Translations under genes and position numbers: made by a program | Shown: piece after piece, positions 112 through 61,685 of the stretch | How positions within the stretch are numbered: position 1 is the first letter of the stretch | Layout of the letters: the number at the start of each line of letters is the position of its first letter | The notes under the pieces: model-generated | Told to the model about the DNA's origin: nothing | The model's input: the letters and a program-made list of their open reading frames with translations, nothing else | Databases searched by the model: none | Assembly: GCA_051362555.1 (NCBI GenBank) | Contig: CM120644.1 | Location: forward strand, 4,100,954-4,164,953 | Source: Lingula anatina | Taxonomy: Eukaryota; Animalia; Brachiopoda | Length of the DNA stretch: 64,000 nt | Direction of reading: 5' to 3'

Positions 112-3100
112 GAAGTGGAACCAAAATTGAAGTATGAGAGAATCCAGAATGATCTTACAACCATTCTACAGAAAGAGGCTGCTAGTTGTATGGCAGTTCA
201 CCCAAAGGTAAAGCTATAGAAACGGTAAGGACTCCATCTTCTTAGTGGGGAAAATTATATTTTACTGCTACTGTATTTTTTATAATGAAAATCTTAAAGA
301 GAGAACATTCCTATAAAGTTGTAGCAACAAAACTAAAAAGCAGCCTACCTAGGCTTATAGTTCTGTTCTATATAGAAAAAGAACCACGTGCTATAAGGAA
401 AAATGAACTTTAATGATTCCAAAATTATGTAGCAGAAAGACAGATAATTTTCCTCATTGAAAAGATATAATTAATATATATGTTGAAATAACAGTAGAAA
501 CAACTTGACAGCACCAAGTTATATATTAATTGATATCTGTTATTTATTTGTTTATTGATTTTTCTTTCAGTTCTTAGCCCTAGGTACTCACTGGGGAGGA
601 GTGTATATATTAGATCACAGTGGTAACAACATCAGAAACAAGGAGAGGAATCCAGTAAGTTAATGTCTAAGTTTAACTCTGAATTTTGAATTCAATTCAA
701 GTATTGACTGATTGTCTCCATCAAGAGATGTGACGTACCAAGAAACAATTCTCTTCTGTATGTTCATGGGAATTCACTAGACTTCTGTTTTTTGATTATT
801 CTCATTTTATTTATCTTGTTACTTAAGTTATTCAAATAAATAAATAAATAAATAAATAAATAAATAGATAAATATTATAAAAAATAAAAATAATAAGAAT
901 GAAAGAAAACTGAATATTATACATTTAGTTTTTTTTTTTTACTTTTCAGCATTCCACCACAGTGAACCAAATCAGCATAGACAGCAACGGAGACTACATG
1001 GCTAGCTGTTCAGATGATGGCAGGGTACGTGGTACGGTAATGGCTCTGTCATTTCAACAGGAAAAAATTATCAGTTTTTCATATATACATTAATATTTGG
1101 AATCATTAAAAATGCATTTCTGTGTTGCGTGCTTTTAATGTATAGAATAAAACTATTTGGTAGTCTGCTTTATTACTTAAAAAGGTACAGTATCTGTAAA
1201 ATTCATTATTTTCCTTGTTGAAGTGATCAAGCCATTACCATAGATTAAAAGTAAAATATTTAGAATTTTTCTTTGACCCTATTTAGCCAAACAACTCCTA
1301 AAGATTTATGTGTTAAAAATTCTGGTATCTGGTAATGACTAAGTTTAAAGTTAATGGTACATTCCATGGGTCTTTAAATCCCAAAAATGCTTATTTTTTG
1401 CCATCAACAGCTTCTTATGAAGTCTTTCATACACCATGCAGAGTTTACAGTATCATTTCCCTCTTTCTTTATTTCTTCTTTCTATATACATATACTTGGT
1501 TGAATCTTATATTCCCATCAGGTTGTCATCATAGGCCTGTATGGCTCAGACAATAATCAAGAGTTCCAGTTTGATCGTCCAATCAAAGCCGTGTCCCTGG
1601 ACCCAGGATTTTACCGCCCTAACATGGGGCGACAGTACGTCACTGGAGACGAGAAGGTAAGAAGGATGGGGGGGACAACAGACTTCACTGATCAGATAGT
1701 GTAGACACTGGTGTTTGTCTGGAGGGTGTTTGATTCATCTTAAATTGTAGGTGTAATACTGCCATTTTGCTTCATCTAACGACATTGAAAAATGTAGTTA
1801 TTGATGAAATAAAGACACTCAGCCAGCCCCTGTCACCCACCCTGTCGGCTCTTATATATTTGCTAGTTGAATAAGCTCCCCCCCCCCCCCCCAGATAAAA
1901 CATACATACCCTGCCCCCTGTGGATATGCCAGTGTACTTAATACAGTGATATTTGCACCCAACAAACACAACAAAATGTTCATTCTTCCAGCTCACTCTT
2001 CATGAGAAAGGTTTCCTGAGTCGACACAAGACAACCATACTTCATGATGGGGAAGGTCCTATTAGGAATATCAAGTGGAGGTCATACTTCATTGCATGGA
2101 CAAATGATAGGGTGAGTTACCAATAAAAGAGCACTTGGAAATATCTTGTTATTATTTTTTATTATCTACAATTGGCTGAATAATATTCAAATAAAATGAT
2201 TACTATAAATTTATTTCTATATATTATTGCAATTTCTTTTCATTAATTATTTTTAATTTTATATTTAGGGTTTGAAAATGACAAGGACAGGTGAATGAAT
2301 CACACCAATGCAGATTTTAAAATTAAAATATTTATATATTGTCAATAGATATTTTTATCTCATTGTCTTTTATTTGATTTGATTCATTTTATCAAGGGTA
2401 TTAAAGTATATGACATGAGCACCAAGCAAAGAATCACATACATCCAGAAAGACATTGATAAGAGGTAAATATATTATATAAAGGTTACAGAACACATTTT
2501 CATTTGAGTGCCAATATCTCACGAGTTTTTCGTATCCTCATCTGTTTTCAGTTAGATTGTTGGGAATGGAAAGCCTGTATAAAACAGGTTCTTCAACACA
2601 CTTGTTGTCAAACATGCACAATAAAAGAAGGAGTATAGAAAATTGTATTCATGTTTACTAGACCTTGTCAGTGCATCTGTGTTGTTTGATGACAGTTTTT
2701 GGCTCCCCCCTTTCTCTCCCTCTCTCTCTTAGAAACCCTAATAAACTTAAGTAAATATTCATGGTATAAGTTTATGGCTGTCTTCCTTTTACCAAATCAT
2801 TTTGTTTGACCTATTTTACAATCAATAACAGCAGTGCCATTTACTATTTCTAGCCTCCGCTCAGAAATCTACCGCTGTCATTTGAGCTGGAAGGATGATA
2901 GAACTCTTTTGATTGGCTGGGCTGACAAGGTCAAAATTTGCGTCATTCGGGAAAGGGACAGGAATGATGTCCGAGACCTGCCTAGTCGATATGTAGAAAT
3001 AGGTGATAGCTGGGCATAGTGATGTATTTTTGTATACAGTAGAGGCAAAATTTCTTTGTAAGTAGCATGACTTAGATTGAAGATAAATAATGTGTGTTAG

Positions 3101-6100
3101 ACCTTTTCATTATAGTAAAGTTTAATTTTGTTAGATATTTAACAATTTCTCTTTGTATTCAGTGGCCATGTTTGATACAGATTTCTACATCTGTGGTATC
3201 GCACCAATGGCGGACAAGCTAGTGTTGTTGACATATGAGAAAGAAGAAGTAACTGTGAGTGATAGTTTGATAATTGGTGTATTTCTCTTAATGTGCCCAA
3301 TGTTTTTATCTTTAAGCTGGACAATTTTGATGGATTTTTATTAAAATTTTTGTTCATTTTAATTATTAAATAAATGTTGCTCAGAATTTCAAAAGATGAT
3401 AACATCTTCAAAAAATTTATGCATATAATGGCAGAAGGTTTCTGTCAGATCCCATCAGAAAAGAATTTAGAACAGAGCAAGCTGTTTCAAAACAAGTCTG
3501 TATCTTTGTCTATAAGACTTAATAACACTGAAGATACTGAAACTATTTTTAGGAGGGAGGCAAAGTGGTGGCAAACAGGCCCCACCTCCAAGTGATTGAC
3601 CCCAAAGTTGACAGCTACGAGGAGATCTCCGATGATGCTCTTTCCATACGTGGATTCCAGGAGTATAGATGTAGTGATTACCATTTAGGTGAGAAGGTCA
3701 TGTGTGGGGAAATTCTGGCTGTTGTTATGCTAGATGTGATTGTGCTAGACGTGACAATTTGGGGGGGGGGGGGGGGGAGGGGGTGATTGTTTTAGAAAAT
3801 TTGCAAAGGGGTGTACAGATTTGCCTGCTTTTATATACTTGTCCTAAGTTTTGTTTCTGTTTTATTTAACAGAGTCTATAATAGAAGAGAACCTGTTCTA
3901 TATCATTAGTCCTAAAGATGTGGTAGTGGCAAAACCAAGGGATCTGGATGACCATTTGGATTGGTTACTACAACATGAAATGTATGAGGTGTGTGTAAAG
4001 TAAAGTATTACTGCTAATCGTGGATATTGGGATCATCATAGAGAGAGAGCGATGCAACCTTATATACATGCTTTGTGTAATAGAGCTTTCTGCATTTTTC
4101 CTTTGCAAAGCATCATGAACAAAGCCACAAAGTTTCCCTGACTTTCCCCCAAGTACTTTACGTTACAAAGCAGCGTGCCAGACATTTAAGTTGCTTTAAC
4201 TGAATGCAATTTAGCTAAATTCCCCAAGGAGTTAGATTGATCCAGTTAGTGTTATGAGGTTGTAGGAATGCTCCCAAAAAGACAGGCTAATCTTGCTGTC
4301 TGGATATGCCTTTGGTACACACAGAAAATGTCTTCATGTTCATCACTTATGTGTTTTATACCTTGTGTTAAAGTAACACTGAGATAGCAGATTATTCTTA
4401 AGGTTTACCTTTGAGTTAACAACCCAGTGTATTAAAAAAAATGTTTTGTTATTTTTTCAGGAGGCCATGGAAGATGCATCAAAGAACAGCAGAGAGTTGA
4501 AGAGAAACTCATATCAGGTGGTGTGCCATGGTTTTAGACAGAATTTAAGATTTAAATGTCAAAGTATTCTTGATAAAATTAATAGTTTTCCTAGGGTCAA
4601 GTTTTATTAGTGTCTTGATATAGACCTAATATAGGGAGGTGGGTTGACATGAAAAGTAACCCAACTCTCTATAGCTTCTTTTTCTCTGACACAGCCATGT
4701 AACAGAAATGATACAGTTTACCATAAAAAAAAGTTTTAAAATGTGGTTGGATTTATGTTGGTGATAAAAATTTCTCTCTCTCTTTCTATCAGGAAATAGG
4801 CAGACTGTACCTGATGCATCTTCTTGAAGAGAGAGAGTTTGAGGAGGCGGCCAAGCTCTGTGTGAAGATTCTCGGGAAGAGCAAGGAAGCTTGGGAGGAT
4901 GCCATATACAAGTTTGCTCAGAGTAGACAACTTAGGGTGAGATAAAAATATTGAAAATATGAATGTTTTTTTTTTCTTTGTGAATATTTTTTTCTTACCT
5001 GCCTTGAGACAATACTTCAATATGCACAGGTGATTTTGATGCCATTTGTAAATTTTGATTTAATATGAAAGAATTATGGAAATATGACATTGTTCATTTG
5101 TCAATCGAACTTAAAAAGTTCAACAAATTTAAGAAGTTTACAAACTGCCGTTTAAGCATACTTCAGTTAACACAGTCACCCCAGCCCCAACTGACATAAT
5201 GGTGTCTATATATATCCAGGTCATAGCTCCATACATCCCCACAGGGAGGGGACAAGATGTCAAACTCAGTGAACCTATATATGAGATGGTGCTTAATGAT
5301 TTCTTACAGTCAGATTATGAGGTAGGACAGTCAAGATGTGTGTGTGCGTGTGTATGCATGTTTGTAATTTGTTCATCAATATGTTATATGTGTTTATGTT
5401 TGTATGTGTGTTTGCATGTCAAATTGATTCATTTTCATATTACAATATGATATATCATACTGCTATAGGTCTATCAGAATTGAATATACTTCAAAGTAAG
5501 GTGGAGAAAACACTTAAATGATCTGAAATTGCCCTAGATTTGGTGATTATACTTTCATATCCGGCTCAATGGAGTGACACATATACCTCTACTGTCTCAG
5601 TTTGAATATCTCTTAACTTAAAAGGATAATAACTCTTCGTTTTGTCAAAAAAATTAATTTTCCTGGAGTAAACAACAATTTTCCCATACTTACCAATGGT
5701 TAATGAATCCATTTTTACATTCGAAGTTAGACCCTGGTTTTTTTCTAAAAAGTTTTTTTTTTTTCTGTAATAATCTCTCTTAAGAGATAATTACAGAGTA
5801 TAGCCATCAATGGAGGTCACGTGGTCTAAAGACAAGCTCAGATATCAGAATAATAGCTATAACTGCCAGTTATCTTGTACAACAGAATATATAATATTTC
5901 TATGAGTTGTTCACAATGATTTTATTGTGAAATATAGATCTCATACAAAGAGTCATTATCCCTTTAACAACCTCTGTCAACAGAACCAGTAAAATATTTA
6001 TCTGTAAATTTTATACAGATTTTTATTTATTTTTGATGTCTTGGATTTTCATGATATCTTAATGTTTCAGGGTTTCAAACGGCGTATCAAGGAGTGGCCG

Positions 6101-7369
6101 CTGGGTCTGTACAACAATCAGGTGCTGGTAAATGCTGTCCTTGACCGGCTGGACAGTGACGAGACCAATATCACTCTACTGGAGTGTCTGGGAGAACTGT
6201 AAGTATTGTTGTATTTCAGATTATTAGAAAATGGAGCCTTTATGAAAGTTTTTACTGGATTTTATTACATGGGGAACCTCAGCTGAAAAAAAATGGGGGT
6301 ATTTCAAGTCACAGTGTTATAGGTGGAATGGGGGTGGAGACGACAATTTTCATGTAGATACTGGTACTTTATATCAAGAACACGCAAAAGTGTTACAACC
6401 AGAAACATTAATTTCATCATATAAAACACTGATGAGACTTTTCCGACTTTTGTCAGAATTCTGCCTTTTCAGGGTCATTTGGGTTATTCTTATGAAAGGT
6501 GTACCCTGAACCCCCGGCCAATTTTCCTACTTTTTCAGTAAAGACTGGTCTCATCCCTGATATATGACTGTGATAACATGAGATTTCATCTGATGCAACC
6601 ATGAGTCATTCATCATTACGCTGAAATGTATCTCAATATCTCATTCCAGTTATACCAATGCCAGGCAGTTTGACAAGTCTTTGGCAATATTTCTCAGGTA
6701 GAGAATAAGTGTAGTACAGTTTTCATTGAGTACATCATTGTGGAACCAAAATAAGTCTTAATGTGATTTGTAAATTGATTCATTTTACCCAGAATTTGGT
6801 TTTGCATAATAAAGAGTGATATATTTGTCATAAATACTATACTATACTGCAGGGGCGGATTTAGGCCGTCTTCTGGGTCTTCCGGAAGACGGTCAGATTT
6901 TCAAGTTTACATTGACGGGTATCCAATTTTTCATGTTGGAAGATGGTCAAAATTGAAGGATGAATCAACAAAGATAATTTGGAAGACTGTCAGTAAATAG
7001 CTCTGGATCCGCCCCTGTACTGATATGTTATATAAATGTAACACATTGTCAGCTTTTACCCATCTCAATTAAGTGTACAATACATGCCTAAGTCAGTGAT
7101 TCAAAAACAAAACCTCTTTTATTCTAAAATTGAGAAGATAAATGAATCAAAACCTTTCTGTCATTACTTAAACCTGTCCTATCCTCACTCTTCTAACCAT
7201 ATTCCAGGTTACAGCATCCAGAGGTTTTCCAGCTAATTCACAAACATAACCTGTTTGACTCCATCGCTGACAAGATTGTCATGTTGATGAAGTTTAACAG
7301 AGAGAAGGCAGTCGAGATGTTTCTGGACAACATGGACAAAGTGCCGGTCAGTTTCAGACAACACAACTG

Positions 7370-7442
<73 letters not shown>

Positions 7443-10400
7443 GAGAGAGAGATACTTACATTAAAAAAGTTTTAATATCATATACTTGAGTGTCCTGTAA
7501 AATTGTAAGGTCGGCAATAGGTTAAAATTTTTATTTATGCAAAATATGACTTGATGACTTACCTCCTATTTTATGTTCTGACTTTTAGGAAGAACGAAAT
7601 TGAGAGAAAAATATAAATGTGTGATTTATTTGATTTAAAATATTTAAATGATATTGTTAGTTTGGTATTTTTTCAAGCAAAATGTCAACCATTATTGTGT
7701 TTTGATTTTTTCCATGTAATATTCCTCTTTGTTCAGATCAAGGAAGTTGTACATCAGCTGGAGAAAACACCTGAACTTCTTCATGTGGTGAGTGAAGTAC
7801 AGTTTTTAAAAATTATTTTTATGCATGCTGCATTCAGGAACAAGTTCACTACTAATCAAGTTTATCACCTACTCAGTTTTATCACATAAAAGAGTGTGTC
7901 CATGTTTTATTAAAACCATTTACACCAGGAACAATTTCTGAAAAAAAAAGAAGGAAAAAAAAAAACTTGACCTAGTTTTGTGACCTACTTTCAGTACCTG
8001 GACAGGCTGTTCCAGAAGGACCACCACATTGGTCAAGAGTTCCATGCACTGCAAGTCAAACTGTATGCCGAGTACGACCGGTCAAAACTGCTGTCCTTCC
8101 TGCGTAGCAGCAACTACTACCCTCTCCAGAAAGCCCTAGAGGAGTGCCAACAGAGACAGCTCTACCCTGAGATGGTGTTCCTGCTTGGTAAGACAGGGAG
8201 AGAGAGAGAGTGAAAAGAAATCATCAAATAATACTGCAATTTGAGAAAATTAAATACGTTGTTAAAAAATGTTTTCTAGTGAAAAGTGTCATCCATATTC
8301 GATTGTGCTAGTTGCTAGTAATGTGTATTCTCGGAGGGACATATTATGTTATCTGAACTAGGAGATGACTGCTACTAAACCAGATTTTACCCTCAATTTT
8401 TGAGCCCAGTGGTCATACTGAAACTGACAGACTACAGAATAGACTGAATCAATTTAAATTAAACCAAAAAATGAGTTCTGTCATTTTACATAGCATGGAG
8501 AAATGATTTATATCACATGCTAACATCTGATGATCCACTTGAACTAGTACCTTAGAAAAATCCCACATTTTGACTAGTCTGGTTCTTAATATACTGGTCA
8601 ACTGACTGGCACCAGTGAGTAAAAAGTGTCCAACTTGTTTCTTTAAGGTCGTATGGGGAACACCAAGCAGGCTCTGATGCTGATCACGCGAGAGCTGGGA
8701 GATGTCAGCCAAGCTATAGAGTTCTGTAAGGAACACAATGACCAGGACCTGTGGGATGACTTGATAGATTTCTCCATTGGGAAACCTTGTAAGTATTATG
8801 GCAATGGCTCTATCGTTCCAACCGGAAAAGTTGTGAATTTTGCAGATATTGTACGTTTTAAGTAAAAAATTCTTGAAATTAGAATGTTACTGTGGAGTGG
8901 AAGCAACACAATTGAAATGCAGACTACTTGATAGATCTGGCCCCCGTAACTCGAAAGCATCGCGCATTGTGACCGAGCGCAAGCATCTCGATTCCATAAC
9001 TCGTCCATACTCGCCCCATATAATACAATGTAGCCTGTGATAAAGATGTGATAAAGCTATTCGCAATGCGCAATGCCTTCGAGTTACGGGGCCCTGTTCT
9101 ATATGGTAATAGCACCAAAATGCCACATAGAAATGTACTTTAAATGATTTCATAATTATGTAGCTGAAAAATTGATAACTTCTCCTGGTTGTATTATTAT
9201 TATTATTAGTGTTATTATTATTGTCATGAAGGTTAATGAATTCACAAATTTGGTAGCTAATGTTTCTTTATTGAAGTACAAAAGCACTTTCCCTTTTTAT
9301 CACCTGGGTAGCTTTGAATAAAGTAATAGCTACAAATACCTAGCTTTTAAAAAAAGAACCAACTTCAGATAATGATATCCAATTTTGGCCAAATTGAATT
9401 TTTAACTAAATCAATGTCTAAAAAAAAATCAGGAAATAAATCATCAAGCTTATGTGTGTGTTATGAGCTTTAATGTCTTATTCACTGAATTAAGTTGTTT
9501 TATTTCCATTCCAGTGTTCATCAAGGGATTATTGAACAACATAGGGACTCACGTGGACCCCATCATCCTGATTAAAAAGATCCGAGAAGGCATGGAAATC
9601 CCAGGGCTACGAGATTCCCTGGTCAAGATTCTTCATGATTACAATTTACAGGTAAATACTGGAGGATAGGGGCGCTTTATAGAAATGAACAGGTGAAAAA
9701 TACACCAGGTGACCAAAATATCATATTGAGTTAATACAGAAAGACGTGAAAAATATACTGAAGTGAGGAAAAATTATTGCAAATGTCTCTTTAAGATAAT
9801 GCTAGATGAAAAAGCGTTTCTGGAGTAAAAGCTCTTGGTAGCTACATGCTACAGAAGACAAAGGGGAGGGCGGGAGCATAAGAGTATGACAGATAGCTTG
9901 GAAACTGCTTCCTTTTGATAACTTTTAAGTTTTGATATGGATATAAATGTTTTAGATGTCATTGAGAGAGGGGTGTCAGAAGATTCTGGTGAAAGATTGT
10001 TATGGTTTATTGGAGCGTCTTGTCAAAACACAGAGAAGAGGAATATGTGTGGACAGTGAGTTATCTTTACTATAATTAGAAACTTAAAAAAATACTACCC
10101 AAATAGTCTTTCTTATTAAGCGTTACTGAAGCATAAATGGATACATAAAAAAAACTTTTTAAGAATATTACACAAATGGTCTTATTTAGTGTCATTGGAA
10201 GCATAAATAGATACAAAACAAGTCCTAATTTACCCAAAAATATTTCCTTACATTTTTGCCTTGACTAGTTTCTCATTATATATATTAGAAAAAAATGAGA
10301 GAATTTCATGTGATTTCAGGTGAACTGAAGTGCCAGACTTGTCACAACACAATACTAGTCAGAGGTAGGCATCTGTTTGGTTGGAATTTATTACAGATCA

Positions 10401-11441
10401 ACATTTTTCCACTTTAAGATTAAAAAGAATATATTAACATTTGTTTTTTAGTTATGGTCAATGTTATCATGAAGGAAAATGTGAACTTTATCATAAATTA
10501 ACATTGATAAAAATTGTATAATTGTATAATTTCAATTTATATAATTTATAAAAATTTAAATGGTAACAGATATTTTATTAATTTTTATTCAAATTTTATT
10601 TAAACTGACAGTTAACATGGTTATAAATACATAATCAGCTGTAAGTGGGAAAGAAATAATGATATATTTATTTTTTAATTCCAGACATGCGGTTTGCTAG
10701 TGATGTTGTTATTTTCTACTGTCGCCATGCATTCCATGAAGATTGTCTTCCAGCAAATGCCACTGTACGTTCTTTCAATATCTCACTGCAAAAATTTGGT
10801 ACAGATATGTTTAAAGCAAGAACTTTTTTCTCTCAATTATTTAAGAATTTTCCTGGAGTAATTCAATTTTCTTCCATTTTAACATTTAACTTGCTTTTTA
10901 TCATATGAAAAAAAGTATTAAATCAGAGATGTTGCAATTATTTCATTAATTAAAAAAAAAGACATGTAAATTCATTTTCAAAAATCTTGCTAATTCCTCA
11001 AGTAAAAGCTTAAAAAAGCTTAAAAACAGTAGTTCTGCAGTGTGGTTGGAGTGACTTGTTGAACTGATTGTGGTTGGTGTGATTTCAACACATTGCATGG
11101 ATGAGACAAAACACAATCGTTGCCTTTAAGGCAATATTGTTCCACACCTTTCCTTTTGAATTTGACCAATTAAAAAGCCTGATACATAGAAAAAAGAAAT
11201 TAATAATGTTTTTGAGTTTTTTCTTCAGGAAAAAAAAACATTTTTTTCTTTTAATATAATCCTTTTCTTTTCTCTTTTGAAAAAATATTTTATTACTCAT
11301 GTTGAGCCTGTTAGCAGATTTTTCCCAATGAATAAAATATTGTTGGAACTTAAAGTTTCAAAATGTCCGTTTCAGGAAAACTGCAGTATCTGTAATGCCC
11401 AGAGGAGAGGTCCTGGCAGCACCATCACATTCAGGAAATGA
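112..11441 (+). CDS. VPS41: Vacuolar protein sorting-associated protein 41 (HOPS subunit), 5'-partial, 24 coding exons
   Basis: Exons joined by hand, all AG/GT with consistent phase: 112-207, 571-654, 950-1024, 1522-1656, 1992-2111, 2397-2464, 2854-3002, 3163-3254, 3553-3688, 3873-3988, 4461-4517, 4793-4936, 5220-5321, 6071-6198, 6650-6697, 7208-7346, 7737-7787, 7995-8187, 8648-8788, 9515-9651, 9956-10055, 10320-10364, 10685-10764, 11376-11441 (TGA). Translation shows Vps41 hallmarks: EPKLKYER, FLALGTHWG, ASCSDDGR (WD40 propeller), SPKDVVVAKPRDLDDH, FLRSSNYYPLQKALEEC and GRMGNTKQAL (clathrin-repeat region), and a C-terminal RING-H2 (CQTC...CRHAFHEDC...CSIC). Start codon lies upstream of the window. 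Confidence 0.97.
5622..5963. mobile_element. Non-autonomous TTAA-target DNA transposon (Kolobok-like), copy 1
   Basis: TTAA on both sides (5618-5621, 5964-5967); TIR A(A/G)GGATAATAACTCTTCGT...TACAAAGAGTCATTATCCCT; a closely similar second copy lies at 22702-23271. Superfamily inferred from TTAA TSD plus purine-purine termini. Confidence 0.8.
6850..7017. mobile_element. MITE with CAGGGGCGGAT TIRs and 5-bp TSD
   Basis: CAGGGGCGGAT at 6850 and ATCCGCCCCTG ending 7017; TACTG duplicated at 6845-6849 and 7018-7022. Confidence 0.8.
7372..7452. repeat. Compound (TA)n(GA)n microsatellite
   Basis: Directly visible dinucleotide runs in a VPS41 intron. Confidence 0.95.
8940..9093. mobile_element. MITE with ~33-bp TIRs and CTG TSD (PIF/Harbinger-like)
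   Basis: GCCCCCGTAACTCGAAAGCATCGCGCATTGTGA ... TCGCAATGCGCAATGCCTTCGAGTTACGGGGCC, with CTG at 8937-8939 and 9094-9096. Confidence 0.7.
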
Positions 11442-13104: not shown

Positions 13105-49741
<36,637 letters not shown>

Positions 49742-50590
49742 GTATGTCACCCATGTGCAACTTAACTGTAGACATAAAATGTAAAATGTCCTGTTTCCTT
49801 TTTTCAGAATTTTTTTTTTATTTGTGTGTGTACTCTATAAGGGAATGTGTGTGTGTGTGTGCAAATGTGCATGCCGCAGGGAGAGAGTAACAAGGAGGGG
49901 GGTGGGGGGAGAGAAAGAGAGAGGATCAGTGGAGAAAGAGATCTTGTAACAAAGAATAAACACCCAGTGGGACCTGCTGCCATGTTGCTCCAAGCACAGT
50001 GTGTTTCAGCCAGTTTTTTCTCACTAAGAAATCATTGACTTATTGGGCAAAGTACCAACAGTTTACTACTAGCGAGGTTATACGACTGCAGGACGTTTGC
50101 AGTGTCATTTTGTTAGATTTATTTTTCTACTTTGGCAAATCCAAGCCTTCCCGACAGTAACAGTGCAAATCGTTGCAAATTTACTTGTTCTTTTTCAGTA
50201 GGCTTTTTTACTTGTGCTCTACGTGTTCCCTTATTTTTCCCCTAAAACTTGGCAATTTTTTATTAATTTTTTTTTTTCTTTTGGTTTATTAATATAATAA
50301 GACCTGGTATGAAGTATTGCATTTTGATGATGTTGTTTTCATGATTGTTTTTGTGATGTTTTTTAAATGTTTTTTTAGCATAACTGTCAGTAAGACTTCA
50401 CAAAAAAAAAAACAGGAGGATAAAATGTAGCAAAATCAAAGAATGTTAACGACTGTTATTGTTATTTGCAAGTGTCTGACACTCTGCTCTCTGCTATAAT
50501 GATAGATCACATTGTGTTCCCTGACTTTTCAAATCTCAGCTTTCCATTATTCTCAGTTCTTGACCACAACACCCCAACCTGGGTGACTTA

Positions 50591-50907
50591 CAGGCCTACC
50601 CAACTACCAGACTCGGCACCGAATGATCCTGAATTCACCGGTAGATCAGACCACACTACCCGTTTTCAAGGTGTGTGTCAGTTCGCATTACACAGTATCA
50701 GACGTGACACCGCTCTTGCCTAGTACGCGATGTGATAGTGACGATTCTCAGCGGGGTTGAAAAGCATTGCATCACCACTCAAAATTTGTTCAGGGTATGA
50801 TACTGTGTAATACGATCTTACACACACCTTGAAAACGGGTAGTATGGTCTGATCTACTGGTGAATTCAGGATCATTCAGTGCCGAGTCTGGTAGTTGGGT
50901 AGGCCTG
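50591..50907. mobile_element. Short, internally deleted copy of the 18850 family, opposite orientation
   Basis: CAGGCCTACCCAACTACCAGACTCGGCAC TIRs; interior matches the reverse complement of ~19625-19710 and ~18950-18978; flanks ACTTA / ATTTA. Confidence 0.85.
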
Positions 50908-51003: not shown

Positions 51004-51218
51004 TTTATCATTAGCTAAGACTTTATATTCATATATCAAATTTTTGTTCATTTTATGATCTAATGGTTGATAATGGATAAAGTAATGGGGCAATGGAGTC
51101 ACTTCCTACGTAATGGATCGCGGTTCGCGAGCTGCCAATTACATAATATTATGTTGGATTACGCAAAGCTTAAAGCTTAACTCTGTAGATCATAAAAGGT
51201 GGGGATTACTTCCCGCCA
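51004..51218 (-). repeat. Split direct repeat B2 (215 bp)
   Basis: No differences seen by eye versus 51628-51842. Confidence 0.93.
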
Positions 51219-51316
51219 ATAAATTGAGTATCATAAATTTTGATACTAGGTAAGTGTTGAGAAATGAAAACAGAAGCATGTGAGTTGAATGTAAACGGGG
51301 GACAGGGTTGGGTGGG

Positions 51317-51842
51317 AAAGTGAATAAACGAAGGTAGTAACTTACCCTTGATCGGTATTGATGTTATTTGGTGTTGACTTCTACTTACGCGCTTGTCTTA
51401 TTTGTCCGTGTGGCTGAGCTGTAAGCCAAAGAGTGTCTTCAGGAATGTGCACAAGATGCGTGGTCTCTGTCTTCCTCCGCACGTGATTCAAACCCGCGGC
51501 GCGATTGGCTAATAGTGCCATAAGGTTAAGTGGATGACGTAATGTTATTTACAGAGGCAGCTGTAGGAAGCGACTCGGGTAAAATCTTAGCTTGATAAAT
51601 TAGATTATGGGCATGCAATAATCTTTATTTATCATTAGCTAAGACTTTATATTCATATATCAAATTTTTGTTCATTTTATGATCTAATGGTTGATAATGG
51701 ATAAAGTAATGGGGCAATGGAGTCACTTCCTACGTAATGGATCGCGGTTCGCGAGCTGCCAATTACATAATATTATGTTGGATTACGCAAAGCTTAAAGC
51801 TTAACTCTGTAGATCATAAAAGGTGGGGATTACTTCCCGCCA
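51317..51842 (-). repeat. Internal B1-A2 junction repeat (A2 51317-51634, B1 51628-51842, sharing TTTATCA)
   Basis: A2 matches 61368-61685 and B1 matches 51004-51218; the two overlap on the 7-mer TTTATCA. Confidence 0.93.
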
Positions 51843-52423
51843 TAGAAAACTTATCGTAAAACCGAATGGTGAAGCTCGGTAAGTTTTCTGCCCCACCCAA
51901 AAATTTGTATAATGTGTAAAAATTGTAAGAAACAGGCTGAGAGTATCTTGTAAAATACAAATATGATTTAATGTCTATCAAAATGGAATACAGAATTACT
52001 ATATAAATTATACAATTCAAAGATCTCCACTGTCTAAGACCTCTGGACCGAGGACCATGGAGGCATTTGGAAGCTGACCCATCAAGGTGATGGGAATATA
52101 TCTATCAAATATGAATACTGAATCTCTATCCTAACTATGTAATTTTCTAGAACTTAAAAATCCCCACGAACCAAGACCCCTGGACCGAGGATCATGGAGG
52201 ATTTTTTGGCATTTACACATCTAATTAGTAAGCAATCTGCATGACAGTGATTGTTCATGCTCAGTTTGTCTACGCTCCCGGACTAGTGAATCCAAGGCAA
52301 GAACGGTTAAGTGACAATTAATCCTTAATACTGACATTCTATAATATACATTATTCTATTGTTGAATACAATGGTCATGTGCATAAAATATTGGTGCCCA
52401 GATTTTGTGTATGGTCTCTGCTT

Positions 52424-52594
52424 AGTATATTGAATGAAAACATGATCTGGTTAAGTGGCACTTCCAGCCGCTATTGGTCTTAGCATATTGCAAGAAGACG
52501 TGACCTGATTAATTGACACTTCCAGTCGCTAGTGCCATAGCATATTGGAAGAAAATATGAACTGATTAATAGACACTTCTAGTCGCTAGTGCTA
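52424..52594. repeat. Three ~57-bp degenerate tandem units downstream of the recombinase stop
   Basis: AG(C/T)ATATTG...GACACTTC(C/T)AGTCGCTAGTG repeated three times. Confidence 0.75.
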
Positions 52595-52849
52595 AGAATC
52601 TTAAATAATATAAAATTCATAAAATAGTTAAAACCGGAGGTATTTCATATATGTATCGGATCTCCATCTGCTTAGGAGTTTGATTCGAGTTTCCGACATG
52701 CTGCTACTTGCTGCAAGCGTAGCACCGCCAATGCGAAAGCTATGGCTTTTAATATTCAGGTGGGAGAGGTTAGCTGTCTTCACACCGTTGTCCAAGCATT
52801 TAATGAAATCCTGGGAGCGAACTGGGGATCCTTCAGCGTGAACGAAGAA

Positions 52850-55584
52850 TTTATTGTACCACCAGCGTTAGCGCTGGCGGTACACATGGTTTCGGTCCCG
52901 TCCGGATCGTTCCGCCGGCTCCGTTGGCTCCGCCGGCTCCGCCGGACGGCTACCGTTACCGCTTCTCCTCCTAGACGGTAAGGGCCCCAGTACCCATCTC
53001 ATGGATTTAGGTCACCTATAATCTCAACTCGTTCCACGTAAAATTTGGGCTTTGTCGGTATTGGGGTCTGGGTGTGGCACTCATTGCAATGCACCCTTGT
53101 CTAAAAATGGCAAAATTAAATGCTAATTATCTACCCTACGGAAGGAGTTATGGGAAAAATTTCTATAGACGGCTTTCCAAAAGTCATATGTGTAGATTTC
53201 AAATATATCCTTGGATTTGACCTTTGACCTCTACTTCAAGGTCAAATGGGCCAAAATTTTCAAAAAAATGAAATTTTTCACGAAAAAAATTTTTTTTGCC
53301 CTGTTATTCAGACATCACACAGACTTAACCAATAATATTATTGGAAAGTGTTACCCTTCAGGTCATCTTTCATCTCCATGAATTTGGGGTCAATCGGTGC
53401 ATTTTCACGGGAGTAGCGGCCATAAGATACCGAAACTGAAAACTGTCTCTAATTCGGGAACCGTTAATGCTAGAGACCCATTCTTTTTTGCATTTTGTAG
53501 AGCATGTAAAGCCCAACACTGGAGGTGGTCTCGGTTTTTTTGTATTCCATACGGTTTTCGAGTTACGCTGTATCAAAAAGTACATATTGGTGGTAAAAGC
53601 AAAATGTGCAGTATGGTAATGGATAATAAATTTTGAACTCTGGAAAAATAAAACATAAGGCTTGGCAAAGCAGACAACTTGTGTTCAAAAATGACATTAT
53701 TTCATCAAATTTGAACTTCTGAAACTTCAGAGCACCTCCTATTTCAAGAATTTTGACCAAAATGACATTTTCTTTATTTTAATTAATTTTTTCTGTACGA
53801 AATTTAAGGCACATTATGGTAACTCCAAAATTATAACATCTAGTCCCTTATATCTCCAAAACTGGCAGAGATAGGTCCATAGTTACTATTGAACTTGAAT
53901 AGGAAGTCATATACTGGCAATCTAAATGTGACCTTGAAATTTACCTTTGACCTACTTTTTACCATGAACTGAACTTTGCAAATTTTTCTTCCCTTTTATC
54001 TCCAAAACTGGCAGAGATAGGTCCATAGTTACTATTGAACTTGAATAGGAAGTCATATACTGGCAATCTAAATGTGACCTTAAAATTGACCTTTGACCTA
54101 CTTTACACCATGAACTGAATTTTGCAAAATTTGCTTCCCTTTTATCTCCAAAACTGGCAGAGATAGGTCCATAGTTACTATTGAACTTGAATAGGAAGTC
54201 ATATACTGGCAATCTAAATGTGACCTTAAAATTGACCTTTGACCTACTTTTCACCATGAACTGAACTTTGCAAATTTTTCTTCCCTTTTATCTCCAAAAC
54301 TGGCAGAGATAGGTCCATAGTTACTATTGAAGTTGAAAAGGAAGTCATATACTGGCAATCTATATGTGACCTTAAAATTGACCTTTGACCTACTTTACAC
54401 CATGAACTGAATTTTGCAAATTTTGCTTTCCTTTTATCTCTAAAACTGGCTGAGATAGGTCCGTAGTTACTATTGAACTTGAATAGGAAGTCATATACTG
54501 GCAATCTAAATGTGACCTTAAAATTGACCTTTGACCTACTTTTCACCATAAACTGAACTTTGCAAATTTTGCTTCCCTTTTATCTCCAAAACTGGCAGAG
54601 ATAGGTCCATAGTTACTATTGAACTTGAAAAGGAAGTCATATACTGGCAATCTAAATGTGACCTTGAAATTGACCTTTGACCTACTTTTCACCATAAACT
54701 GAACTTTGCAAATTTTGCTTCCCTTTTATCTCCAAAACTGGCAGAGAAAGGTCCATAGTTACTATTGAACTTGAAAAGGAAGTCATATACTGGCAATCTA
54801 AATGTGACCTTAAAATTGACCTTTGACCTACTTTACACCATGAACTGAATTTTGCAAATTTTGCTTCCCTTTTATCTCCAAAACTGGCAGAGATAGGTCC
54901 ATAGTTACTATTGAACTTGAAAAGGAAGTCATATACTGGCAATCTAAATGTGACCTTAAAATTGACCTTTGACCTACTTTACGCCATGAACTGAATTTTG
55001 CAAATTTTGCTTTCCTTTTATCTCCAAAACTGGCTGAGATAGGTCCGTAGTTACTATTGAACTTGAATAGGAAGTCATATACTGGCATTATAAATGTGAC
55101 ATTAAAATTGACCTTTGTCCTACTTTTCACCATAAACTGAACTTTGCAAATTTTGCTTCCCTTTTATCTCCAAAACTGGCAGAGATAGGTCCATAGTTAC
55201 TATTGAACTTGAATAGAAAGTCATATACTGGCAATCTAAATGTGACCTTGAAATTGACCTTTGACCTACTTTTCACCATGAACTGAATTTTGCAAATTTT
55301 GCTTCCCTTTTATCTCCAAAACTGGATTCAAGTCATATACTGGCAATTTACTGTGACCTTGAAATTGACCCTTGACCTACCTTACGAAGAATTTAAATTT
55401 GATTGTACCATATATATTTTTTGCAATAGTTTAAAAATTCTTGTTGATTGCATTTTTACAGCTTGTCAAGCACAAAACTGGTGGCTGTGTCCCTTATTTT
55501 GTGTATGTGGGGGTCTATACGAATGCGCTTGCTCCAGCTGGTGGTACAATATTTGGAGGCGGTATCGCCTCTCTGATCCTCTAG
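52850..55584 (+). mobile_element. Non-autonomous Helentron-associated element (HINE / DINE-1-like) with internal 146-bp array
   Basis: 15-bp asymmetric subTIRs TATTGTACCACCAGC (52852-52866) / GCTGGTGGTACAATA (55537-55551); 5' stem-loop; short GTCCG/CTCCG-type repeats near 52895-52950; central tandem array; 3' hairpin GAGGCG-GTAT-CGCCTC (55556-55571) then CTAG; inserted at an A|TT site with no TSD. Confidence 0.85.
53851..55381. repeat. 146-bp tandem array, 10 full units plus a partial unit
   Basis: TATCTC(C/T)AAAACTGG at 53851, 53997, 54143 ... 55165, 55311 (period 146); TGACCTT-rich unit. Confidence 0.96.
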
Positions 55585-56135
55585 TTGTCTATTGCTTGTG
55601 CTAGGGCGTAGGGATACATATTCAGAGACCCATCTCACAGGACATACCTTAGGCATCCTCTTGCGAATTATCACCGTGTGATTTGAGTTCTGACCTGCAT
55701 GTTTAAAAGAAGGGAGATATAAGGTGATGGCACCTTCAGACTGATTCATCTTAACATTGCCCAGTTGAAGATGGTGGTCAGTTTCACTAGATACAACTTC
55801 ACTTATCCCTAAGAGTCCAAAGAATGCAAGCGTAAACATGGCAGCCATTAAGTGTACTTTGTAGGCTGACTGCATACCGACGGTGAGGATCTGTATCAAC
55901 ATAAGTAGGATTGACAAAGTAACTGGGGACCTTGTGTCGCATGAGGGGTTTTTCTTCTTCGGGCCCCGAATTGTTTGTTTCACTATGAAAGCAGATGTTG
56001 AGTCCGAGATGCTTGCCATCTTGTATTTATAGCTTAACGCAGGGAGGTGTGTCCTGGTAAATGATGGCTTGTATCATTCACTTAGATAATGTACAAATAG
56101 GGTCGTCGCTGTTGGATCTGAAGGGAATGTTCTCA

Positions 56136-56182
<47 letters not shown>

Positions 56183-56269
56183 TAATAGATATAAATTCAA
56201 TAAAAAGGTTCAATTTTGCTGTAAGTTCTCCTGGTGTTTGGACGTAGGGTGAGGATCTGCCAGTGGTTG

Positions 56270-56908
56270 CAGTCTTCTGAAGGCCTGTAAATTAGGCCGA
56301 GATAGGGCATTAGCAGCACAATTGTCCACGCCGGGTATGTGGGTGGCTCAAAAATTTTTTGTTCTTTAAACAATGTAGAATAAGTTTTTTCAGTAGTAAC
56401 ATAATGGAATGATCCTTCGAGGTGCAATTGTTTAGAATGTAAATCAAGGCTTCATTGTTTGAAAAAATGGTTACTTTTTTGTTTTTCAAGTAATCTTCCC
56501 AAACAAAAAAGGGGGCAGACCTCCGGATGAGTCTGTGAAAATGAAAGCTACTGGGAACAAAGACCAATGATCATTATAGAGAAAGCTACGCCCATTTAAA
56601 GTTAGGAGGAATATATGCCACGTAGAAAGGTCCGCACGGGCTTCATTGTTGAGACGGATTTTGTAGTGGGGTTGGGTTGTCCCAACATTGAGATTGATAA
56701 GCCGCCTTAAAAAGGGCCCTCCCGACCGGGATAATAAAGCAGCAAAAATCTTTAAGGCCGATGGTCGATAGGAGATCATGCAGTGCTATTTTCCTTTTGG
56801 ATATGGACTAGTTCTAGGTAGTTTTTGATTTTTCCCAGGGGGCAAGCGTGCCTCCTGCAGTGAGGTGTCCAGTTCTATACCGGCAAAGGATATTACAATA
56901 GCTGGGGA

Positions 56909-56985
<77 letters not shown>

Positions 56986-57538
56986 TCTGATTGTGCTCCT
57001 ATCAGCTGACAAAGATCTATGAAATGGTCAAGACGTTTTAGACATTCTTGTTTGGTTGGGGACAGGATGAGGAAATCATCCAGCAAGTATAGGATATCAG
57101 GTATCCGACACTTGTTTTTAGCTATCCATTCTATGGCCGAACTAAAGGTTTTCGAATTTTTAACAACAAGAGCGTAAGCCCATGGGTAATTTTTTGTCAA
57201 AATAGTACTGTGATTTTAAGGAGAAACCCATTAGAAACAAAAGTCTTTGTAATGTGAGAATTCTAAATGGTTCTGGATGTTTGCTTTAGCCAGGTAGGCA
57301 TCTTTTCCTATGGATTTAGCCAGTTGAATAGCATCAGAGGCATTGGCATACGAAACGTTGCCGATTTGTCCTTAATGCCATCGTTGACGGAGTAGTGTTT
57401 CGGGGAGGAAAGATTATGTATGAAACAGAGCTTTCCTGGGGTCTTTTTGGGGACAACATAAATTGGGGACGTGACGAAGAATGGGGGGTGGGGGTGTGGA
57501 GAATGAGCTCACAATACGTGCTGCTTCAATTTCTGTGC

Positions 57539-57580
<42 letters not shown>

Positions 57581-57714
57581 CCTTCCACCAGATAATAAGA
57601 AATGTGGGGGTTATAGCCTGCAAGTAAGTTTTCTAAGATTTGATACTTAACAGGTGTCGTAATATTGTCGACAATGGGAAAGGAGGATTCGTTGATTGTT
57701 ATTATGACTTGCAT
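56270..57714 (-). pseudogene. Reverse transcriptase / RNase H of the retrotransposon, frameshifted
   Basis: ITTPVKYQILENLLAGY...YLVEGF; SVNDGI; YLAKANI; LPMG; YLLDDFLI (YxDD); FLRRLINL...IRLNNEARADLSTW..FL...NG; FTDSSG; SNNEALIYILN..TSKD; HIPGVDNCAANALSR. Several frameshifts and homopolymer/microsatellite tracts. Confidence 0.92.
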
Positions 57715-58269
57715 AGGATTATGTTATCTTTTTAATTGATATAATCATCATCTCAAATTTTGTCTCAATTTTGAGTTGACGTGGTAATCTATATTAGTTC
57801 TTGGAATTTGCTTCTCTAAAATGAAGAAAGGAAGTATAGACTCCATATGGCAGAGGTGAGAGGGATAGAAGAGCCCTGCCAGCTCAAAAGAGGAAGCCTA
57901 AGGAAGTGTATTAACAGAAATAAATGATTAATTGATAATCTGGTTCAATGAGATGTACGGAACAGCGTATGCGAATGCTAGCCATTCAGTTTTACAAATT
58001 GCAGAATCTATTTTTAGGCCAATTGCTAGTTAAAGGTACCCGTAGCAATGTATAGTGCTTGTTATCGTAATATTAATTCATTATTGAAAAAGTTGCAAAT
58101 AATGTATAATATGTTGGCAAGTTAACTTGCTGTAGGTGCACAAGTATGTGATAGAGGCGGACAAGTATATGTCCAGGTATAAAAAATTAAGGCATAAGCA
58201 ATTGTAAGCAAACAAGATAATAACTATTGTCTACATATGTCATGTAGCTGTGCCATCCTTTAAGCTGGT

Positions 58270-59915
58270 TGAATGCGGCCACGCATTGCGGCCCAAGACT
58301 ATGTTGGTGCAACATAGGTAAGAGTAAAGCGACTACGTGCTGCAGTCTTTTGTACAGCCATTTTTTGCACTTGGCTTAGGTAAGAGTAAAGCGGCTACGT
58401 GCTGCAGCCTTTTGTACAGCCTTTTTTGCATTTGGCTTAATGCAGCCACGCATTGTGGCCCCAAAATACAGTAAATAAGAGTAAAGCGGCTACGTGCTAC
58501 AGCCTTTTGTACAAATAAGAGAAAGCGGCCTTGTGATGGGCCCATTGGCAGAAATCAATGGCGAAGTAAATGTATGTGAATGTAACTATAAAACAAGTAT
58601 CAATCAAGCTATAGCGTGTTTGCATTTGGTGTAATGCGGCCACGCGTTGTGGCCCCAAAATACAGTAAATTGGAGTAAAGCGGCTACGTGCTACAGCCTT
58701 TTGTACAAATAAGAGAAAGCGGCCTTGTGATGGGCCCATTGGCAGAAATCAATGGCGAAGTAAATGTATGTGAATGTAACTATAAAACAAGTATCAATCA
58801 AGCTATAGCGTGTTTGCGATTTGGTGTAATGCGGCCACGCGTTGTGGCCCCAAAATACAGTAAATTAGAGTAAAGCGGCTACGTGCTACATCCATTTGTA
58901 CAAATAAGAGAAAGCGGCCTTATGATGGGCCCATTGGCAGAAATCAATGGCGAAGTAAATGTATATGAATGTAACTATAAATCAAATATCAATCAAGCTA
59001 TAGCGTGTTTGCACTTGGTATAATGCTGCCACACGTTGTGGCCCAGGCTCTATTAATGCCTCATAAGCAAAAGAAAAGCGGCAGCATGCTGTAGCCCTTA
59101 AAGTAAACGAGAGAAAGCGGTTGTATGATGGGCCCACTGGTGGATATCAATGTCATTCGCACAACAATTGTTGAATGCACAGCATAAGGCTTCGTTCACA
59201 TGCAATGTCCACCTTCCACCTTCCATCCTCCACCTTCGGCACGTCCCACGATCACGCTCCGCGCCCCGAACATCCCGCGGCGCAATTACTGGCTTCTTAT
59301 AAGTAACTGGCTCGCGCTGCCAGTAATTACGCCGCGGGACGTCCAGGGCACAGAGCGCGATCACAAGACACACCGAAAATAGAAAATAGAAAACAGAAAA
59401 CAGACATTGCATGTGAACGAAGCCTAAGCTTAGGCTACTCTTACGCATAAGTTGGTAAATATGGTGGTGAGTCAATGGCTAAGTAATTGTACGTGAATGT
59501 AACTATAGATCAAGTATAAATCGAGCTGTAGCGTGTATGCACCTGGCATAATGAGGCCACGCATTGTGGCCCAGGCTGTATCGATGTATCATAAGTAATA
59601 GAAAAGCAGTAACATGTTGTAGCCCTTATAGTCACAAGAGAAAGCAGCCGCCTGATGGGCTCACTGATCGAGATCAAAGTCGTTCGCATACCAATTGTTG
59701 AAGGCACATCGTAAGCTTAAGCTACTCATATACATAAGTCGGTAAATATGGTGGCGAGTCAATGGCGAAGTAAACGTATGTGAATGTAACTATAAATCAA
59801 GTATAAATCAAGCTATAGCATGTTTGCATTTGGCTTAAAGCGGCCATGCGTTTTGGCCCGATCTGTATTTATGCAGTTTAAGTAATAGAAAAGCGGCAAC
59901 ATGCTGTAGCCTCGG
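58270..59915. repeat. Complex tandem array (core period ~194 bp, with shorter and longer variants) inside the retrotransposon
   Basis: GGGCCCA at 58538, 58732, 58927, 59130; longer ~290-bp units to the right and truncated units to the left. Confidence 0.9.
59188..59424. mobile_element. 237-bp PIF/Harbinger-like hairpin MITE, T>C (minus-strand A>G) hypermutated copy
   Basis: Same 22-bp TIRs and central segment as 22713-22949; TAA TSD at 59185-59187 and 59425-59427; the next repeat unit (~59712) shows the empty site. Confidence 0.93.
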
Positions 59916-59924
59916 AAAGATCAT

Positions 59925-60441
59925 CATAGCATACGAGTGCCTAACTCATTCATGTGTACCCCTTCTTGACGGATTGTTCTCCCATTGTTCGGTGGCACCC
60001 ACATGCCGAAGAAAGTGGACCTTAGCCTGTCCCTGTAAGGTCTTATTCAGTTGCCTGACACATTCGTAATAACTGTCCTGGTCAGCTTTCGTTGGGAGAT
60101 ATCAGCAGCTGGGCGCAGATCGAAATAGGAGCTGTCCCAGAAAATCACAGCATCTGGATTTAAGTCCTGAATGCATAGGTTGAGTGATACTATCTTGCTT
60201 GTAATTTGTTGCGCATCGCATCGAAGGGGGGGCGGGGGGCTCGCACATAATTTCCACCCAATTGAAGGAGGTTCTAGGAGGTCATTCTGGGAAGTCATCA
60301 CTGGACAGAAAATGGCCCAATCGGGCTCCACTTTTTCCATAGCCATTGAACACTAAACCCTCCTGGATGGGGGTTGAGATTTGGAGGGGCTTCCTGTTCT
60401 AATCCTCTAATAAGACTGCGACCAGTTATCATAATTTCCAT
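59925..60441 (-). pseudogene. SGNH/GDSL-type hydrolase of the retrotransposon, frameshifted
   Basis: Across frameshifts: MEIMITGRSLIRGL (block I), GYGKSGARL (block II), LQLGGNYV (block III), DAVIFW, RQEGVHMNELG (block V, DxxH-like). SGNH ORFs are known in some Ngaro elements. Confidence 0.75.
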
Positions 60442-61367
60442 ATTAAGGAAACTTAAAGGCATGCAACTATCTGAAACATAATAAATTAGGGTAAAGGCAA
60501 GGCATTACCAGCCCCTAATAAAGCTTATGGTATTAAGAATCTAGCAATATAGAGATAAAAAAGGGGGGGGGGGTGAGCAGATGCGATCCCTCAACGTTAG
60601 TTAACATTAGTTAATAGTGAACTTTTTACAATTGTTATAATTATACACTGTAATAAATATTCTTAAAACACTGTATAAGTAGTAATCCATAGTGCTGTAT
60701 AACTATTTATTTATCCATCTATTTGTAGTATAGAGGGCTAACAAATGTAACTGTCATATTTAATGCTCGAATAAATTATTATTATTATTAATAATCCTAG
60801 ATCTGGATGTATAAAATTTTTGCTTCTCCCAGGGTGTCGAGGCATCAAAGCATATATCTGACCACCCGGCATGTGCAAGCAATTAATGATTACGTAAGCG
60901 TATCCGGAGGCGCCATGTTGTCCGGTACAGGATGCAGCCGAACAAAAGTGGATGTTTTCCCACGACTCACGGTGGTAGGAGAAGATAGGGAATTGCATAT
61001 ACTACCATTAAACGCATAATTCATTCGTAACTGTCTGTACGAGTAACACCTAACCATAAGAATCTTATTGTGTCAATTAGTCGATATCAACTAACAATTT
61101 AGGAGTCCGCCATTTTGACTCGCTTCGATGCGTAGAACGTACAGAAACTGGCCATTTTATCGGAAGTTATAACTAATCGGGTCGTTTTCTTTGTTTCCTA
61201 AGCAAAGTTTACTGTTAAAGAAATAGAAAAGTACTTAGCTGTACCTATTACCAAGGGTGTGTAACAGGAAACAAATACATATGAACCAGCGAAACTCGTG
61301 CTACTCATGTTATTCGTGTTGTAGCTAATAAGCGCCGTGTGACGACGTAAAGCTCGTGAAAGAGCGT

Positions 61368-61685
61368 AAAGTGAATAAACGAAGGTAGTAACTTACCCTT
61401 GATCGGTATTGATGTTATTTGGTGTTGACTTCTACTTACGCGCTTGTCTTATTTGTCCGTGTGGCTGAGCTGTAAGCCAAAGAGTGTCTTCAGGAATGTG
61501 CACAAGATGCGTGGTCTCTGTCTTCCTCCGCACGTGATTCAAACCCGCGGCGCGATTGGCTAATAGTGCCATAAGGTTAAGTGGATGACGTAATGTTATT
61601 TACAGAGGCAGCTGTAGGAAGCGACTCGGGTAAAATCTTAGCTTGATAAATTAGATTATGGGCATGCAATAATCTTTATTTATCA
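61368..61685 (-). repeat. Split direct repeat A1 (318 bp), 5' end of the retrotransposon
   Basis: No differences seen by eye versus 51317-51634; on the minus strand it contains TTACGTCA, CCAAT, CACGTG and a GGTAAGT donor-like motif. Confidence 0.93.

Follow-up and report, generated by a model that had tools for sequence, protein, structure and literature searches.

RNA edits appear to have been written into the genome of the brachiopod Lingula anatina. Within the 64,000-nucleotide stretch analysed here (the window), a 237-bp fold-back MITE at 59188..59424 lies inside a defective tyrosine-recombinase retrotransposon, Ngaro-type by its layout, and 28 of the 61 adenosines (46%) that the hairpin arms hold on the minus strand have been replaced by G, while none of the 61 adenosines of the plus strand has. 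It is quite probable that the MITE entered a donor copy of this retrotransposon, that the duplex formed in the element's RNA was hyper-edited by ADAR, and that the edited RNA was reverse transcribed and integrated. The same course had been proposed in the initial annotation, and is now supported by an allele of the carrier lacking the MITE, by T in at least 99% of the MITE family at six of these sites and by stranded RNA reads. When the two other routes weighed below that also pass through edited RNA, earlier editing of the MITE elsewhere and conversion of the locus in place, are added to it, the writing of RNA edits into DNA is highly probable.

Structure of the edited hairpin

The MITE, assigned to neither strand, was delimited by the alignment of its arms and by its absence from an otherwise identical contig. 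Read as minus-strand RNA, it consists of a 5' arm (59319..59424), a loop of 25 nt (59294..59318) and a 3' arm (59188..59293), and is flanked on the plus strand by a TAA target-site duplication (59185..59187 on the left and 59425..59427 on the right) where the empty allele has a single TAA. Re-alignment of the two 106-bp arms reproduced the initial description, as they pair without gaps and are mismatched at 28/106 pairs, of which 21 show C in the left arm versus A in the right and 7 show A in the left versus C in the right. All 28 mismatches represent T>C on the plus strand, hence A>G on the minus strand, affecting 21/43 adenosines of the 3' arm and 7/18 of the 5' arm; the nine minus-strand adenosines of the loop are retained. 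At even odds, the probability of finding all 28 on the same strand by chance is 7e-9. The changes are confined to the duplex, since not a single difference from the family contig is found in 511 flanking bases, and G-to-A on the sense strand, the sign of APOBEC, occurs at 0/28 positions in the hairpin. Because every mismatch is a G-U pair on the minus strand, the RNA hairpin still folds fully, with a predicted 106-bp duplex at -206 kcal/mol. Once the 28 changed sites are set aside, the arms are identical, indicating that the MITE was young at the time of the change.

In line with a MITE, the element is short, non-coding and bordered by terminal inverted repeats, has a TAA duplication on both copies in the window and occurs in many copies. 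The 3-bp TAA duplication is a trait of PIF/Harbinger (Tourist-like) MITEs, making this the candidate class here. A search of metagenome contigs for the 22-nt terminal repeat gave no matches. At the right end, MITE and flank together form a perfect 16-bp palindrome (59421-59436).

As initially claimed, 27 of the 28 changed adenosines lack a 5' G, this base preceding 1/28 changed versus 12/33 unchanged adenosines (Fisher p=0.0018). The parallel claim on UAG sites stands as a count, with 4/4 being changed, but is weak evidence taken alone: a 3' G follows 7/28 changed versus 3/33 unchanged adenosines, which is not significant (p=0.16), and a UAG preference was therefore dropped as independent proof of ADAR. 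Hyper-editing in invertebrates has no downstream G preference according to PMC5625713.

The footprint also has a shape along the duplex. In each arm, editing ceases ahead of the 3' end, the last edit lying 21 nt away from it in the 5' arm, where this end is on the loop side, and 22 nt away in the 3' arm. Beyond this 3'-end cut, which was set after the data had been seen, 0/7 of the adenosines without 5' G are edited versus 27/41 elsewhere (p=0.0016). According to the available part of PMC10713624, editing is strand-specific and takes place upstream of duplex breaks, at a distance of 26 nt for ADAR2 or 35 nt for ADAR1 that is determined by the RNA-binding domains; an ADAR needing duplex on its 3' side would fit the positions where the edits end. 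Such a 3'-end rule leaves unexplained four unchanged adenosines of the 5' arm, at a distance of 10-17 nt from its 5' start. Neither terminal repeat is edited in its outer 22 bp (0/11 adenosines), and this intactness keeps alive the alternative of an already edited MITE jumping as DNA.

The carrier and its host context

The carrier extends over 51004..61685 on the minus strand, with one 7-mer standing at either end and recurring at the B1/A2 overlap, and all of its genes are broken. By self-comparison, two pairs of split direct repeats were found on this strand, A1 (61368..61685) and A2 (51317..51634), identical at 318/318 positions, and B1 (51628..51842) and B2 (51004..51218), identical at 215/215 positions. 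On the minus strand, the element thus reads A1-internal-B1-A2-spacer-B2, with 98 bp between A2 and B2. Identical repeats in the arrangement A1-[ORFs]-B1A2B2 are described for Ngaro in the available text of PMC9210276 and PMC8547959, and a short end sequence shared in this way is expected from integration of a circle by the recombinase (PMC7192593, available in part).

The gene order on the minus strand is reverse transcriptase (RT), RNase H and then tyrosine recombinase (YR), the match of the latter being weak. A 626-aa relative, found with an RT fragment, aligns to 57657-56240 on the minus strand (tblastn E 6e-22), where the RT and RNase H remnants (56240..57657) are disrupted by stops, frame changes and long poly-A runs. 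This relative has an RVT_1 match and a weak RNase H match and ends just past RNase H, with no methylase match; in the carrier, less than 200 bp separate RNase H from the YR frame, this copy being much decayed. A methyltransferase following RNase H would set PAT-like elements apart from Ngaro. The YR gene is split by a DNA-transposon-like insert of 2.7 kb (52854..55549, assigned to neither strand), which has 13-bp inverted ends with TA on both sides and contains ten 146-bp tandem units. The rear part of the recombinase (52631..52851, minus strand) possesses the catalytic H-x-x-R and Y motifs and a PF00589 match at E 0.021, below the cut-off. Its front part is presumably encoded at 55552..56073 on the same strand, as judged from position and motifs and without a database match, 0/43 candidates having passed in the homology search. 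Pfam searches with 14 carrier fragments yielded nothing beyond YR and RNase H matches below threshold, and Rfam gave no match on the carrier. Three poly-A runs of 34-45 bases on the element strand interrupt the RT region (56141-56174, 56909-56984 and 57543-57576), one of which adjoins a trinucleotide repeated in 11 units; the window has runs of this kind in other places as well.

From the split-repeat layout and the gene order, the carrier is classed as putatively Ngaro-type, with PAT-like elements having the same split repeats. The initial annotation had named a tyrosine-recombinase retrotransposon with its RT and YR genes on the A>G strand. The element type was confirmed and can be given more exactly as one with split direct repeats; as to the strand, the claim is firm for RT and RNase H, the recombinase contributing only the weak PF00589 match.

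The MITE is inserted in a tandem-repeat region of the carrier (58246..59911, assigned to neither strand), the units of which differ pairwise by mixed substitutions. A short-word search of the carrier found no second long inverted repeat, although this search is a weak one that fragmented the edited hairpin as well. Between the split repeats, divergence amounts to 0/533 pairs (95% upper bound of 0.6% per site). Split repeats are made equal at each transposition and, on this model, their identity would mean that the last integration was recent and that the proteins were supplied in trans.

On the plus strand of the surrounding DNA, exons of a Ser/Thr kinase are located at 42924-43220 and 49538-49762 (Pkinase), the second stopping inside the catalytic loop. 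The kinase presumably resembles the DRAK/STK17 group, going by its motifs. The next kinase exon was sought up to 64 kb and none was found; the retrotransposon is thus most probably located within an intron of the kinase gene, in antisense orientation. With the kinase exons on the plus strand, editing of the host pre-mRNA would yield A>G on this strand, which is the opposite direction and is seen at 0/61 sites, so that the host transcript was rejected as the edited RNA. The A>G changes belong to the retrotransposon's own strand. Elsewhere in the window, VPS41 exons are found on the plus strand at 1504-10905 (seven frames with Vps41 Pfam matches).

Ancestral state and the empty carrier allele

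As an outgroup for polarity, the window offers an unedited sister MITE at 22713..22949 (assigned to neither strand), with TAA on both sides. At the 28 sites, it has T in both arms in 25 cases and in at least one arm in 27, and never C, and a comparison of its two arms shows 4 transversions and one 2-base gap; the polarity read from this copy in the initial annotation is therefore borne out. Mixed mismatch spectra are also found in three more inverted pairs of the 64-kb window, two of them hairpins, and the one-strand bias regardless of context that had been named as contrary evidence was encountered neither there nor in the sister copy. Other fold-back MITE families of the window, at 36594-36785, 50591-50907 and 18850-19813, serve as controls with mixed arm mismatches. 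A repeat pair of 88% identity (22950-23273 and 5630-5965) starts precisely where the sister MITE ends on its right side, placing this copy, too, in or beside another repeat.

Sequencing data of the species add the state of the family. Nine runs from three studies contain 0.77-0.80 of the words of 59050-61400, none being above 0.80 and none being listed as RNA; three entries with 0.04 or 0.00 of the words were left out, and four of the 21 listed runs (X3, X11, X14 and X17) were compared with 59050-59800. X3 is a DNA run by an assignment guess, with which its near-fixed T agrees. The right-arm figures for the family and for RNA cover six of the seven changed right-arm sites, 59364 being left out. 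At these six sites, the MITE family in X3 has T in at least 99% (non-T at 0.99, 0.94, 0, 0.09, 0.01 and 0.33%), with 0% non-T at 59358. This near fixation points to a T:A ancestor, the family consensus thus being T and not C:G at 6/6 sites. A sign of the copy number of the MITE is given by the up to 60 contigs per site in X3, with a summed depth near 950,000.

A contig of 931 nt and depth 448 in X3 represents the empty carrier allele. It covers 59050-59184 and 59425-59800 with 0 differences over these 511 bases and skips 240 bases, corresponding to the MITE and one TAA, at the joint 59184>59425. Contigs of MITE variants have depths of about 11 to 194, and this suggests, depth not being a copy number, that the MITE-free carrier is multi-copy. 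In X3, depth is 0 at 59232-59257 and no contig extends over the edited core, nor does any contig add depth across the right junction of the MITE, so that neither the edited copy nor an unedited MITE-bearing donor copy was seen in this single DNA run; the C alleles are known from the assembly alone. Given the missing core contig and the family T, the X3 animal has no amplified subfamily of the C-rich form, and the free-standing C-rich variants that had been named as possible counter-evidence did not turn up in this run.

Two compensated pairs, 59271/59341 and 59257/59355, distinguish the edited MITE from its family. At 59341, it has G where X3 has A in 99.8%, and at 59355 G where X3 has C in 94.5%. 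By these pairs, the edited MITE belongs to a minor subfamily in which the two arms evolve jointly, and the pair 59271/59341 could be an older edit later made symmetric.

Editing of the same sites in RNA

In the stranded RNA runs X11 and X14, first mates of reads outside the MITE map to the plus strand only, indicating RNA from the minus strand, the sense strand of the carrier, if the library type is that of most stranded libraries. Two X11 RNA reads span the empty joint. Of the reads inside the MITE, 89-98% continue into unlike sequence and hence stem from other copies of the MITE. Over the six right-arm sites, the proportion of non-T bases by strand is 204/487 (42%) versus 24/229 (10%) in X11 and 297/570 (52%) versus 5/153 (3%) in X14, while values in the unstranded X17 are 220/791 (28%) versus 225/765 (29%). 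A strand contrast at the same six sites was thus obtained in 2/2 stranded RNA runs, from reads of other MITE copies, with DNA staying below 1%. At single sites, the contrast reaches p=6e-15; none is seen at 59371 in either run or at 59343 in X11. These RNA levels are inflated, as the edited copy used as reference attracts edited reads and non-T was counted as C. In the loose end of 60 X11 reads, T-rich heptamers have become C-rich, which is the same conversion as in the genomic copy.

The lowest RNA level (10-16%) is found at 59343, the sole changed site with a 5' G. Together with 59358 and 59371, it is among the sites that are changed in the genomic copy and show only 10-30% in sense-strand RNA, whereas 59226 (21/29 and 67/83) and 59286 (9/13 and 16/17), which the genomic copy has kept unchanged, show editing in the majority of RNA reads (69-94%). 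The genomic pattern accordingly resembles one draw from live editing and not a majority vote, which speaks against polishing of the assembly with RNA.

Origin of the edited copy

In the preferred reading, a TAA in one member of the carrier family would have received the MITE, the insertion itself being evident from the empty allele and its location in a donor copy being assumed. Transcription of the carrier from the minus strand, as indicated by the two stranded runs, would then have allowed the MITE to fold into its predicted 106-bp duplex, in which 46% of the adenosines may have been deaminated by ADAR, the presumed enzyme behind the editing that the RNA of the family displays at the same sites. 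RT and YR supplied in trans would have read I as G, as is established for reverse transcriptase, and integrated the resulting cDNA in the kinase intron, in antisense orientation, and the edited copy, being present in the assembly, has presumably been inherited.

It is unlikely, by comparison, that the MITE had been edited and reverse transcribed earlier and elsewhere with its terminal repeats preserved, and reached the retrotransposon by DNA transposition once the latter was already integrated, the match in strand being chance. The clean TAA duplication and the unedited outer 22 bp at both ends would agree with such a jump, but the loop end of the 5' arm is spared as well, where transposase selection has no action. 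Moreover, the edited core has no contig in X3 and 59358 shows 0% non-T, so that the edited form is not an amplified subfamily there, and two rare events plus a landing in sense orientation in a young retroelement would be required. Slightly less credible still is a conversion in place, with an unedited MITE entering the resident copy and an edited cDNA of the locus recombining back, which involves ADAR and RT and no new integration. DIRS-1 is described as producing linear single-stranded cDNA (PMC7192593, available in part), and a conversion would account for the fact that no donor copy was seen; however, it has left no direct sign, and the identical split repeats allow little time for two further events.

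That edited RNA reads or a systematic error entered the assembly consensus is very improbable. Although the C alleles are unseen in the DNA run X3 and clustered sequencing errors of the G-to-A type have entered references before (available text of PMC2873906), the genomic pattern is that of a single molecule and not of the majority of RNA reads, which come from other copies. Besides, the sister copy and the other hairpins are unaffected, and carrier RNA is seen without the MITE (2 reads). Least of all can the changes be ascribed to a process at the DNA level, be it a deamination, either of cytidines in a C:G ancestor or on the cDNA strand, or selection favouring changes compatible with G-U pairing. 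Such selection would be in line with every mismatch being G-U on the minus strand, with the RNA fold kept, but it would also allow C>U and predicts no 5' G rule, while cDNA-strand deamination would give A>G on the plus strand, observed at 0/61 sites. C-to-U from a C:G ancestor has the wrong polarity and is excluded by the T:A ancestor, this polarity largely refuting a DNA-level process.

Comparison with known systems

ADAR-type A-to-G hypermutation of reverse-transcribing elements is known from the avian retroviruses Rous-associated virus as well as avian leukosis virus (Felder 1994; Hajjar and Linial 1995; both as cited in the available part of PMC12925331). There, nearly half of the inverted-repeat adenosines were changed to G (PMC12925331), similar to the 46% found here. 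The present case differs from these viruses in that an endogenous tyrosine-recombinase retrotransposon of an animal assembly acts as carrier, that a captured DNA transposon forms the duplex, and that RNA of the species is edited at the same sites. A deaminase-made, strand-biased cluster fixed in a genomic retroelement copy is also what has been described for APOBEC-edited LTR retrotransposons (Knisbacher and Levanon, PMC4866542, available in part). APOBEC editing, however, is G-to-A on the sense strand and takes place on cDNA, whereas the changes reported here are A-to-G, made on RNA and confined to a duplex; membership in the APOBEC class is ruled out by G-to-A at 0/28. According to the available text of the APOBEC screen, such editing was found neither in 19 invertebrates nor in DNA transposons, and the pairwise filter kept G-to-A and not A-to-G (PMC4866542). 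With metazoan RNA hyper-editing (Porath et al., PMC5625713, available in part), the present case shares clustered A-to-G changes in dsRNA of mobile elements and the depletion of an upstream G, but that editing is of RNA only, while here one molecule is recorded in DNA. As to the carrier, the A1-[ORFs]-B1A2B2 arrangement with identical repeats, RT, RNase H and YR genes and the short end repeat is like that of Ngaro elements of the order DIRS (PMC9210276, PMC8547959 and PMC7192593, each available in part); unlike these, all of its genes are broken, two DNA transposons are carried as cargo, and a 98-bp spacer separates A2 from B2.

A search of literature outside the subscription journals found no title on ADAR scars that had become fixed in the DNA of endogenous retroelements, nor a paper on such scars in elements of the order DIRS or in MITEs carried as cargo, and the available part of PMC12458077 contains nothing on a route from RNA edits to DNA. 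The case is well supported; the route as such is known from avian retroviruses, the carrier class is new and the control set is unusually complete.

Biological meaning

What the locus offers is a single-molecule DNA record of RNA editing for which one can see the family in its unedited state, the MITE-free carrier and present-day RNA editing at these sites. The initial annotation went too far in calling it proof of an RNA stage of the cargo-laden element and evidence of germline ADAR activity, as the germline setting and the entry of the MITE before integration are what we infer. If the preferred reading is true, A-to-I edits can become inherited mutations via a DIRS-order retrotransposon, an order whose cycle has, to our knowledge, been tested only for DIRS-1. 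Carrier RNA would then meet ADAR ahead of reverse transcription, hyper-editing would be no bar to integration, and a fully broken element with two cargos would still be mobilised. A cheap genome-wide screen might be possible for one-way G-U hairpins in young retroelements, which APOBEC-oriented screens filter out.

A broader reading, to which we give belief and doubt in equal parts, is that ADAR acts as a germline mutagen of retroelements in animals without APOBEC3-type editing. Any hairpin cargo in retroelement RNA, DIRS-order elements included, might be hyper-edited and written back, and the scars could serve as tracers proving an RNA stage and the trans-mobilisation of a broken, cargo-laden 10.7-kb element. 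Since ADAR, on this broader reading, spares duplex ends, a scarred MITE would keep its terminal repeats intact and may found a G/C-richer subfamily by DNA transposition.
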